A DNA stretch of 64,000 bases from a bacterium (lineage in GTDB: Bacteria; Patescibacteriota; Minisyncoccia; Phycocordibacterales; Phycocordibacteraceae): positions 32,001 to 96,000 of the forward strand of contig JBBCGK010000001.1 of NCBI GenBank assembly GCA_037200965.1, written 5' to 3'. How positions within the stretch are numbered: the stretch's first letter is position 1; every line of letters starts with the position of its first letter. The notes beneath the pieces were generated by a model. It searched no databases. It saw nothing but the letters and a program-made list of their open reading frames with translations, and was not told where the DNA came from. Of the stretch, positions 47,358 through 50,210 are shown piece after piece. Made by a program: the position numbers and the translations under genes.

Positions 47358-50210
47358 ATGGCAAAAAAAGGATACGATCATGCATCCATAGAGCGGAAAT
47401 GGCAGGAGCGGTGGAAAGAGCAGGACATCTATCGCACTTCCGAAGATCCGCAAAAGAAAAAAGCCTATGTGCTTGATATGTTCCCGTACCCTTCCGGAGA
47501 GGGGCTGCATGTCGGGCACCCGAAAGGATATATCGCGACCGACGTGTATTCTCGGCACATGCGCATGCGCGGAAGAAGCGTCCTTCATCCGATGGGATGG
47601 GATGCGTTCGGCCTTCCCGCTGAGAACTACGCCCTCAAGCACAAGGTGCACCCGAAGGTCGCGGTCGGGAAGAACATCGCGCGCTTCAAAGAGCAGCTCG
47701 CGAAAATCGGCTTCGACTACGACTGGTCCCGCGAGATCAACACGACCGATCCGAAATACTATAAGTGGACGCAGTGGATATTTCTGAAGCTCCTCGAGCA
47801 CGGGCTCGCATACCAGTCGAACGAGCCGATCAACTGGTGCCCGTCGTGCATGACGGGACTTGCGAACGAAGATCTCGACGGGAACGTGTGCGAGCGCTGC
47901 GGCACGCCGGTCGAAAAGAAAAAGCTTCCGCAATGGGTGCTTAAGATCACCGACTATGCCGACCGGCTCCTCGCCGATCTCGACGCGCTCTCCTGGCCCG
48001 AGCACATCAAGCAGGCGCAGCGCAACTGGATCGGCCGGAGCGAGGGACTCGTCTTCGCTTCACCGGTCAAGGATACGGATATGGTCCTCGAGACCTTCTC
48101 GGCACACTTCGAAGCCTTCAAGGCCGATACGTTCCTCGTTATCGCGCCTGACCATCCGCTTTTGCCGCAGCTCGTCGCAGGCCTGCCGGAAGAGAAGAAG
48201 GTTCTTGCCGAAGCCGGGAAAATGGTCGAGAAGCGGGAGGCCGCGGGCCTCGGGGGCGTTAAAGACATCGAAGGCGTCTTCACGGGAAGATACACCGTGG
48301 ATCCCGTGGGAAACGGGGAACTTCCGATATGGGTTGCAAGCTACGCGCTTGCCGACTACGGCACCGGCATCGTGAAGTGTTCCGCGCATGACGAGCGCGA
48401 CTTCGCGTTCGCAAAGAAATACGGCATTCCGCTCAAGGAAGTGCTCGAGCCGGTACATACGCAAACGGACAATTCGTCCGCGTTCCGGAAAGACGAGCCG
48501 TACGTCGACAACTACGGCGTGATCGTCGTGCTTAAGCACTGGGCCGAGGACAAGTATCTGGGCCTTCGCTGGAAGAACGCCCCTGACTGGGGAACCCTCC
48601 TCACCGGAGGCATCGACGAGGGCATGTCGCCCGAAGACACGGTGCTCAAGGAGATCCGGGAGGAAACGGGATATACGAGCGCGAAGATCGCCAAAAACCT
48701 CGGCAAAGTGCACGGCCGCTATTATCATGTCCCGAAGCAGCTTAACCGCTTCGGTCATACGCCAATGTTCCTCGTGGAGCTTCAAAACGGGGAGCGAAAC
48801 GAGATAAGCGAGGACGAGCAGGCCCGGCATGAACTCCTCTGGCTCACGAAAGACGAAATGCATTCCTTTCTGACCGCCGAGACGCATAAATACGCGTTCC
48901 GGAAAGCCACGGAGGACGTGTGCTGGACCGACATGCAAAACGGCATCCTGAACGCGCCGGAGGAATTCGCGGGAAAGATCGCCGCCGACTGCCGTGAAGC
49001 GATAGCGGACTATGCGGTACAAAACGGCCTTGCCCGCAGAAAGACCGTCTACAAAATCAAGGACTGGGTCTTTTCCCGCCAAAGGTACTGGGGGGAACCG
49101 ATCCCGATCGTGCATTGCGAGAAAGACGGCGCCGTTCCCGTGCCCTATGAGGACCTTCCCGTGCTTCTTCCGGAAGTGGAATCATACGAGCCGACCGGCA
49201 CCGGCGAGTCTCCGCTTGCCGCGATCACGGACTGGGTGAATACGCGCTGCCCGAAGTGCGGAGGTCCCGCAAAGCGCGAGACCAACACCATGCCGCAGTG
49301 GGCCGGATCCTCCTGGTATTACCTCCGCTATATGGATCCGCATGACGATACGCAGCTTGTTTCCACCAAGGATGAGAAGTATTGGGCGCCGGTCGACGTG
49401 TATGTGGGAGGCGACCATGCCGTTCGGCATCTCATCTATGCCCGCTTCTGGCACAAGTTCCTTTACGATACCGGCTTCGTCTCGACCGCGGAACCCTTCG
49501 CGCGGCTCGAGTTCCTGGGCTTCATTCTCGCCGAGGACGGACGAAAGATGAGCAAGCGATTGGGTAACGTCATCAACCCGGATGATGTCGTGGCCGAATA
49601 CGGAGCGGACGCGCTTCGTCTCTATACGCTTTTCATGGGGCCGTTTGAAAATACGACGAGCTGGAGCACGGGCTCCATCGCAGGTACGTCGCGCTTCATC
49701 GAGCGGATCATCAAGGCATCGGGCACGGTGCAGGAAGACCGGGTAGCAGCGTTGGATGCGCTCCTCCATCAAACCGTCAAAAAGGTCAGCGAGGATATCG
49801 AGGCGTTTAAATTCAACACGGCGGTCAGCCAGATGATGATTTTCATGAACGCGCTTGAGAAGGCCGGAAGCATTGGAAAAGGGCAATGGGGGGTATTCCT
49901 GCGCCTTCTTGCGCCGTTTGCGCCGCACGTGACCGAAGAGCTCTGGGAAACGCTTGGGGAGACGCCTTCGATACACCTCGCGCCGTGGCCCGAATACGAC
50001 CCCGCGCTCCTTATTGAAAGCGCGGTCGAGATCGTCGTGCAGGTAAACGGCAGGCGGAGGGGGTCGATAACGCTGAGTCCCGACGCTTCGGAGAGCGAAG
50101 CGTTTGAAATGGCTAAAGAGGTGCCCGCGGTCGTCGCGGCGCTTGGCGGAAAAGAGCCGGGAAGGGTCGTGTATGTTCCGGGTAAAATCCTTAATTTGGT
50201 GGCCGCTTGA
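47358..50210 (+). CDS. leuS: leucine--tRNA ligase with embedded NUDIX hydrolase domain
   Basis: HIGH-type [12 protein letters not shown], KMSKR-region [11 protein letters not shown], editing-domain remnant [16 protein letters not shown]. About 120 inserted residues carry a Nudix box [23 protein letters not shown]. Confidence 0.9.
   Translation: [950 protein letters not shown]

Follow-up and report, generated by a model that had tools for sequence, protein, structure and literature searches.

A predicted Nudix hydrolase domain within the CP1 editing domain of leucyl-tRNA synthetase in Patescibacteria belongs to a synthetase-associated subfamily

Aminoacyl-tRNA synthetases are a main source of diadenosine tetraphosphate (Ap4A) and other dinucleoside polyphosphates (ApnN), which arise when ATP or another nucleotide attacks the enzyme-bound aminoacyl-adenylate, and Nudix enzymes cut Ap4A asymmetrically into ATP and AMP (PMC10148737, PMC7705103). 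The described axis works in trans: a synthetase such as LysRS/LysU makes ApnN from its aminoacyl-adenylate and a dedicated hydrolase (ApaH, NUDT2, RppH or YqeK) removes it (PMC10148737, PMC7705103). Extra catalytic domains are rare in bacterial aminoacyl-tRNA synthetases; one curated example among class Ia synthetases is the NCBIfam family NF040702 (isoleucine--tRNA ligase, N-acetyltransferase domain-containing), where the host is IleRS and the added domain has the GNAT fold, and NCBIfam holds no model that joins LeuRS to Nudix. Here we report that the leucyl-tRNA synthetase (LeuRS) gene, leuS, in a 64,000-nucleotide stretch of a Patescibacteria genome (contig JBBCGK010000001.1, positions 32,001 to 96,000; the window, by which we mean this whole stretch) encodes an entire predicted Nudix hydrolase within the proofreading domain of this essential enzyme, and that the same architecture occurs in a large part of Patescibacteria. 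The chemistry proposed for it below is that of the axis in trans, but producer and presumed hydrolase are here one polypeptide or the products of adjacent genes, and the hosts are LeuRS and ProRS rather than LysRS.

The LeuRS of the window resembles canonical LeuRS, such as those of T. thermophilus (PDB identifiers 1H3N and 2BYT) and E. coli (4AQ7), in its catalytic core, ZN1, a CP1 domain with GTG and AHDxRD, an anticodon-binding domain and a C-terminal domain, at about 50% identity. Its score of 910 bits against the NCBIfam model for bacterial leucine--tRNA ligase (TIGR00396; cut-off 548) and its intact HIGH and KMSKS motifs (Table 1) identify it as a LeuRS, and Pfam recognizes in it a class I catalytic domain, a LeuRS editing domain (residues 222-383) and an anticodon-binding domain. 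Unlike the canonical enzymes, it has a 169-residue Nudix segment for a 22-residue loop of the T. thermophilus protein, SAHFEA for TTRPDT, and no leucine-specific domain. Residues 580-638 of the T. thermophilus enzyme find no counterpart, and after residue 726 the alignment of the query continues at residue 731. The LeuRS of Mycoplasma mobile (3ZIU; PMC3643597) likewise has a tetrapeptide in place of the leucine-specific domain, GKDG there and EDGR in the window, but it lacks CP1 altogether, whereas the window enzyme retains a CP1 that is enlarged by the Nudix domain.

When the query is aligned with the LeuRS of T. thermophilus (1H3N), its residues 6-364 correspond to residues 4-363 and its residues 534-726 to residues 386-580, so that the 169-residue insert, which directly follows a strand, replaces a 22-residue surface loop of CP1 with a net gain of about 145 residues; the loop at the same position in close insert-less LeuS proteins is 16-28 residues long. 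A preliminary description of the window had placed a Nudix module between the AHDxRD editing block and the SRQRYWG block. Hidden Markov model matches, fold prediction, structural comparison and orthologue conservation agree on this placement, the flanking blocks were quoted correctly and the span given (48500-48900) falls within the insert (48450-48956), although the estimate of about 120 extra residues was too low. The segment is neither a normal editing subdomain nor a leucine-specific one, and its key Glu residues are conserved in orthologues.

The Pfam NUDIX family (PF00293) matches the insert between the two halves of LeuRS with 38.4 bits (gathering cut-off 21.1, E-value 1.5e-9), and orthologues score 41-124 bits. 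The Nudix box is read in the register G417-x5-M423-x7-K431-E432-I433-x-E435-E436-x-G438-Y439. The metal-binding Glu triad (E432, E435 and E436) is complete. The register in the preliminary description was wrong, since the REETG to which it pointed is the x-E-E-x-G part of the box and not its RE. The strict consensus GX5EX7REUXEEXGU does not hold for the window copy, in which position 7 is changed from Glu to Met and position 15 from Arg to Lys. From shuffling, 0.01 occurrences of a relaxed Nudix-box pattern are expected in the six-frame translation of the window, where a single one is found. AlphaFold2 models the domain alone (residues 378-522, from an alignment of 35 sequences) with a mean predicted local distance difference test score (pLDDT) of 96.4 and a predicted template modelling score (pTM) of 0.89, in the beta-grasp and helix order of the Nudix alpha/beta/alpha sandwich and with the box as a predicted loop-helix-loop. 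The full-length model has a pLDDT of 89.1 and a pTM of 0.77; residues 361-540, both linkers included, are modelled at 91-97 and therefore no disordered tether is predicted. A chance resemblance to the Nudix box is ruled out by the Pfam match, the conservation of the Glu residues, the shuffling expectation and the predicted fold. As judged from sequence and models, we consider with high confidence that the insert is a genuine, active-looking Nudix pyrophosphohydrolase domain built into the CP1 of LeuRS.

An insert at the identical site is found in 105 of the 120 closest LeuS proteins, and those that carry a name come from Patescibacteria (Paceibacteria, Minisyncoccia, Nomurabacteria, Taylorbacteria and others). 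The insert is thus lineage-wide, which answers a question raised in the preliminary description, and a scan of GTDB species genomes added 14 bacterial-type LeuS with insert (from Paceibacterota, Nomura-, Taylor-, Jorgensen- and Moraniibacteria and some doubtfully labelled bins). Across the 105 orthologues G417, E432 and E436 are invariant (both Glu residues 105/105), E435 is kept in 103 (98%) and G438 in 94%. Box positions 7 and 15 co-vary, as E/R in 49 orthologues, M/K in 16, Q/A in 16, F/K in 8 and L/K in 4; the canonical pair is therefore present in about half, and all pair types are found in both LeuS subclades. This pattern suggests that the putative E7/R15 salt bridge was repeatedly replaced, as a pair, by other contacts and was not eroded. 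Conservation outside the box extends to W405, W411, [FY]455-[YF]456, K460-x-x-N463-R464, L475, E487, H491 and W495, of which E487 is presumed to be an additional metal-binding or catalytic residue. Mean pairwise identity is 37% for the Nudix domain against 66% for the synthetase, and such fast drift around a fixed active site would be expected if the enzyme is accessory yet active. A non-catalytic module, in which the Nudix fold would act as a nucleotide sensor or as a structural brace that regulates CP1 or aminoacylation, might be read from the missing E7 and R15 of the window copy and from the ordered linkers of the model, which suggest a rigid sub-domain, and non-enzymatic Nudix domains are known (PMC5389931). 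We regard such a module as very unlikely, for across the 281 family copies the Glu triad (complete in 270 of them) and E487 hardly vary while other parts of the domain diverge, and the change at E7/R15 is that of a co-varying pair rather than of decay.

An exhaustive search of 1.84 billion representative sequences with a profile of the insert matched 10,194 Nudix proteins at E≤1e-3, 534 at E≤1e-10 and 152 clusters at E≤1e-30. Among the best 150 representatives, 108 are LeuS by BLAST (full-length or fragments) and Pfam identifies another four as LeuS fragments; 33 have the size of stand-alone proteins, including two ProRS fragments and about 25 clearly free-standing genes of ~143-207 residues; two are tandem-Nudix proteins and one is a full-length class II ProRS (P0251). 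That the stand-alone members are mere fragments of split LeuS is ruled out for these about 25, which are full-length genes that begin with Met and end at the domain. Members of the family are found at three sites in LeuRS: at the N-terminal hinge of CP1, in the same CP1 loop as in the window, and within the second half of the catalytic core, downstream of the SRQRYWG block. Some LeuRS have as many as three Nudix copies. All copy classes have the signature in common, and identity between classes (32-35%) is close to that within them (33-47%). In the ProRS P0251 the Nudix domain lies between the anticodon-binding and C-terminal domains; this architecture is found in five clusters (P0251, P0271-P0274), the nearest insert-less relatives of which are labelled Nanoarchaeota or Woesearchaeota, and the hosts are probably DPANN archaea. 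By these sequence comparisons the insert represents a Nudix subfamily of its own, for which no curated family exists and whose members in nearly all cases are tied to aminoacyl-tRNA synthetases.

Hydrolases of other families are also seen in the LeuRS of Patescibacteria. The N-terminal hinge of CP1 harbors an alpha/beta-hydrolase (P0026, P0037), a Ham1 domain (P0092) or an extra Nudix domain, HAD_2 is located between the CP core and KMSKS in P0080 and P0099, and P0154 has a full Ham1 domain further downstream, just before the anticodon-binding domain. Such multi-module LeuRS reach 1,100-1,530 residues, and relatives with extra modules also include P0079, P0095, P0120, P0059 and P0122.

Free-standing members of the subfamily can adjoin leuS, as a gene for roughly 160 residues placed directly upstream. 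The stand-alone gene P0151 lies 1 nucleotide upstream of a 951-residue leuS in the order YchF, DUF5671, Nudix, LeuS, sigma70_r4 protein, DUF8128, YceG and MnmA, which is the synteny of the window, and P0167 lies 2 nucleotides upstream of an insert-less leuS; this pair is the split form of the fusion. In the cluster of P0137 the order is MetRS-x-TatD-Nudix-x-x-YfbR-like HD-x-Nudix-insert-less LeuS. The stand-alone members P0001 and P0158 have no synthetase near them and no member of the family lies within 6-10 kilobases (kb) of three insert-less leuS genes, so the association of Nudix and synthetase is strong but not obligatory. The N-terminal lead of free members (P0001 residues 8-20, ..LEPLFIEV..; P0137 residues 22-34, ..SEPVFIQT..) has its homologue in the LeuS/insert junction (of the window protein and of P0009). 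Either the apparent linker is itself a part of the Nudix family, or the free genes arose by excision from LeuS and took a stretch of the junction with them.

The best solved relatives of the domain by sequence are the lupin and Aquifex Ap4A hydrolases. Foldseek matches near the top, with template modelling (TM) scores of 0.66-0.78, include Aquifex Ap4A hydrolase, NudB, T. thermophilus Ndx1 (a diadenosine hexaphosphate, Ap6A, hydrolase), MutT1/Rv2985, CT771, NUDT2, Plasmodium Ap4A hydrolase and RppH; the highest-ranking matches of known function in the structural comparison are Ap4A/Ap6A hydrolases, Rv2985, DDP1 and RppH, but other specificities score only slightly lower. The substrates proposed in the preliminary description, Ap4A and by-products of aminoacyl-adenylates, would agree with these relatives. 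An aromatic residue or Tyr about 17 residues after the box marks the X-loop of diadenosine polyphosphate (ApnA) hydrolases (PMC5389931), and the window copy has Y455 at +16 and Y456 at +17; the X-loop residue is aromatic in 279 of the 281 family copies and Tyr in 205. Identity to the asymmetric (di)nucleoside-polyphosphate Nudix hydrolases (Aquifex aq_158, 3I7U; T. thermophilus Ndx1, 1VC8; M. tuberculosis Rv2985, 9CXX; lupin, 1F3Y; human NUDT2) is 17-23%, and the predicted window domain differs from these free-standing enzymes in being embedded in a synthetase, in a signature of its own (W405, W411, K460xxNR, H491, W495) and in M/K for E7/R15.

RppH/NudH (E. coli, PRK00714), which itself also cleaves Ap4A, shares with the domain the box context GGxxxGE...EExG and a Y-x-x-P-K-like X-loop, and RppH models are the best curated sequence matches. 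An RppH-like enzyme could act on RNA or tRNA ends, with the synthetase as a tRNA-binding platform, and remove a 5'-pyrophosphate, Np4A- or NAD-type caps or another pyrophosphate adduct. Structural neighbors such as RppH, AvrM14 and oomycete effectors, the last two being decapping Nudix enzymes, would fit such an activity, as would the facts that both host synthetases bind tRNA and that the insert lies within CP1, which handles the tRNA 3' end. However, the scores fall in the range of 20-40 bits (23.3 for the window and 39.8 for P0167), far below the RppH cut-offs of 116-259 and thus outside these equivalog families, free-standing members with the same signature have no RNA-binding partner, and three sites in LeuRS and one in ProRS would hardly share a geometry to the tRNA end. 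We find this activity unlikely.

We favor an action in cis, in which the embedded Nudix domain would hydrolyze dinucleoside polyphosphates and related adenylylated by-products made by the synthetase itself, and assign to it a probability of roughly 45%; both the substrate class and the physiological benefit are inferred. Spliced by short, confidently modelled linkers into a CP1 surface loop, the domain would sit on an otherwise functional LeuRS, whose bound aminoacyl-adenylate would be attacked by ATP or another nucleotide to give Ap4A, diadenosine triphosphate (Ap3A) and ApnN. The Nudix domain would hydrolyze these and related adenylylated by-products, and organisms that depend on the scavenging of nucleotides would thereby regain ATP or ADP together with AMP for their pool. 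The Nudix domain and the synthetase probably work together, because members of the family are present in related synthetases by the hundreds, in a ProRS and next to leuS. A different view would make the domain a generic house-cleaning or salvage passenger with no mechanistic link to aminoacylation, which in streamlined genomes would have settled in loops that tolerate insertions, within a gene that is essential and constitutively expressed. The Ham1, HAD_2, alpha/beta-hydrolase and extra Nudix modules at several sites of LeuRS relatives are in keeping with such a passenger, as are the genes for a YfbR-like HD nucleotidase, TatD, MazG and other Nudix proteins among the neighbors, and that some insert-less leuS genes lack a linked Nudix gene speaks for it and weighs against the action in cis. 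A random passenger should, however, show diverse hosts, whereas this subfamily is in its great majority bound to synthetases (LeuS and LeuS fragments account for at least 112 of the best 150 representatives), recurs independently in the unrelated class II ProRS and abuts leuS in its free-standing form. We therefore take a passenger to be possible but doubtful.

The position of the insert inside the editing domain also invites comparison with proofreading. The canonical editing site of CP1 keeps GTG and AHDERD in the window LeuRS, but TTRPDT is replaced by SAHFEA, a strongly conserved sequence that 35 of the 120 closest LeuS have as well as the window protein. The threonines that are missing in this clade are those equivalent to T247, T248 and T252, the gating and catalytic residues of post-transfer editing in E. 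coli LeuRS, and editing may be altered or lost in the SAHFEA clade independently of the Nudix insert. As an extra proofreading site, the Nudix domain would hydrolyze mis-activated aminoacyl-adenylates from the synthetic site (pre-transfer editing), and the location within the editing domain and the remodelled T-rich motif in the clade of the window would agree with this; ProRS, too, mis-activates amino acids. Nevertheless, whether a LeuRS has the insert does not depend on its form of the T-rich motif (24 SAHFEA proteins with and 11 without insert, 79 TTRxDT proteins with and four without), which rules out the Nudix domain as compensation for a degenerate motif. Moreover, the canonical substrates of Nudix enzymes are nucleoside diphosphates linked to another moiety (NDP-X), to which an acyl-phosphate mixed anhydride does not belong. 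Pre-transfer editing by the Nudix domain is in our view highly improbable. A broader version, in which the domain would be a second site of quality control or repair, new in its chemistry and directed at what the synthetase itself handles, and might hydrolyze caps or pyrophosphate-type adducts on tRNA ends or destroy aberrant adenylates, appears distinctly unlikely. If true, it would make the LeuRS of Patescibacteria and the ProRS of DPANN bifunctional charge-and-repair enzymes and not synthetases with a passenger.

Presence of the insert is patchy even among LeuS that are up to ~82% identical in their core, insert-less proteins being interleaved with insert-bearing ones, and Fitch parsimony on a neighbor-joining tree requires at least 13 gains or losses. 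This number conflicts with the observation that all 11 insert-less SAHFEA-type LeuS (P0022-24, P0043, P0047, P0091, P0093, P0094, P0104, P0106 and P0111) share a single homologous 16-residue replacement loop (PEDPxLRxQVExLxV; the natural loop in place of Nudix is PEDPVLRDQIEALNV). Because this one loop is common to all of them, the data suggest two old alleles that were exchanged by recombination or horizontal gene transfer, rather than many independent deletions.

The architecture of LeuRS with Nudix and the synthetase-associated Nudix subfamily appear to be new. As the preliminary description had supposed, the searchable full-text literature yielded no description of the fusion, though most subscription journals lie outside that coverage and an earlier account is possible; the clan-wide Nudix review (PMC5389931) never mentions aminoacyl-tRNA synthetases. 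Precomputed Pfam NUDIX matches for these LeuS proteins are already public. Fusion and gene neighborhood together are a strong pointer to shared function and give an experimental handle on an old question, the fate of synthetase-made dinucleoside polyphosphates in cells. The LeuRS of organisms with minimal genomes also emerges as a scaffold and hot spot at which hydrolase modules (Nudix, Ham1, HAD and alpha/beta-hydrolase) are inserted.

Table 1. Coordinates of features in the window and in loci with related Nudix genes
Sequence	Feature	Nucleotides	Residues	Strand	Remark
Window	Conserved gene block	45022-52740
Window	YchF GTPase	45022-46119
Window	leuS open reading frame, bacterial-type LeuRS with insert	47358-50210	950 in all	+	uninterrupted; = P0002
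Window	HIGH motif (HVGH), synthetic active site	47508-47519		+	invariant in 76 orthologues
Window	SAHFEA in place of T-rich editing motif TTRPDT	48099-48116	248-253	+
Window	AHDERD editing-site motif	48384-48401		+	immediately upstream of insertion point
Window	LeuS/insert junction	48441-48488
Window	Whole insert relative to insert-less LeuRS	48450-48956	365-533	+	N- and C-terminal linkers included; from alignment
Window	Nudix domain core, alpha/beta/alpha sandwich	48489-48923	378-522	+
Window	Pfam NUDIX match	48570-48890	405-511
Window	Nudix box	48606-48674	G417 to Y439	+	catalytic E432, E435, E436
Window	Box position 7, E to M	48624-48626	M423
Window	Box position 15, R to K	48648-48650	K431
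Window	X-loop	48720-48749	Y455-Y456, K460-x-x-N463-R464	+	+16/+17 from box; K460-x-x-N463-R464 family-invariant
Window	Downstream conserved residues	48816-48842	E487, H491, W495	+
Window	SRQRYWG block	49050-49094		+	LeuRS catalytic core restarts after CP1
Window	Site of absent leucine-specific domain	49521-49571	722-738
Window	KMSKS motif (KMSKR)	49545-49559		+	AEDGR just before, leucine-specific domain absent
Window	sigma70_r4 and HARE-HTH protein	50247-51320	357 in all
Window	Open reading frame	51385-52740	451 in all		no Pfam match here; DUF8128 at equivalent position in relatives, then YceG and MnmA
Window	tRNA genes	28801-29423, 10909-10984, 31739-31812
L006	P0167	3451-3936
L007	P0167	492-977
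L008	P0167	639-1124
L009	Nudix genes	5001-5549 and 7476-7913			insert-less leuS preceded by a different, generic 145-residue Nudix; YfbR-like HD nucleotidase, TatD and MetRS in cluster
L025	ProRS with Nudix	3720-5744			separate Nudix, AAA_18 kinase-like gene and MazG nearby
L026	ProRS with Nudix	5593-7524			tRNA_bind gene directly upstream

An assembly chimera or a recent foreign insertion is ruled out by the identity of the window LeuS (P0002) with the protein of an NCBI metagenome-assembled genome (on a 960-kb contig) and of an independent Logan assembly, by a guanine-plus-cytosine content that is flat across the insert and the region, and by the more than 100 insert-bearing orthologues. Relatives with and without insert keep the gene order YchF GTPase, small membrane protein, LeuS, sigma70_r4 and HARE-HTH protein and a further open reading frame. 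In PADLOC neither the window domain nor P0151 had a match, and P0167 had only a weak hit to PDC-S07 (E-value 1.8e-4, 19 bits), which is no convincing defence-system match. The Rfam scan of the window found only tRNAs, with no leader, riboswitch, T-box or other Rfam element at leuS and no tRNA-Leu gene near it. Of the six tRNA genes, those for Pro-GGG, Pro-CGG, Ala-CGC and Val-CAC are tightly clustered, and those for Ala-TGC and Ala-GGC lie elsewhere. Most of the proteins in the group of P0002 and its relatives are named 'class I tRNA ligase family protein' and not 'leucine--tRNA ligase' at NCBI, despite the TIGR00396 score; the insert probably breaks a coverage rule, so that the leuS annotation is lost in many metagenome-assembled genomes of Patescibacteria.

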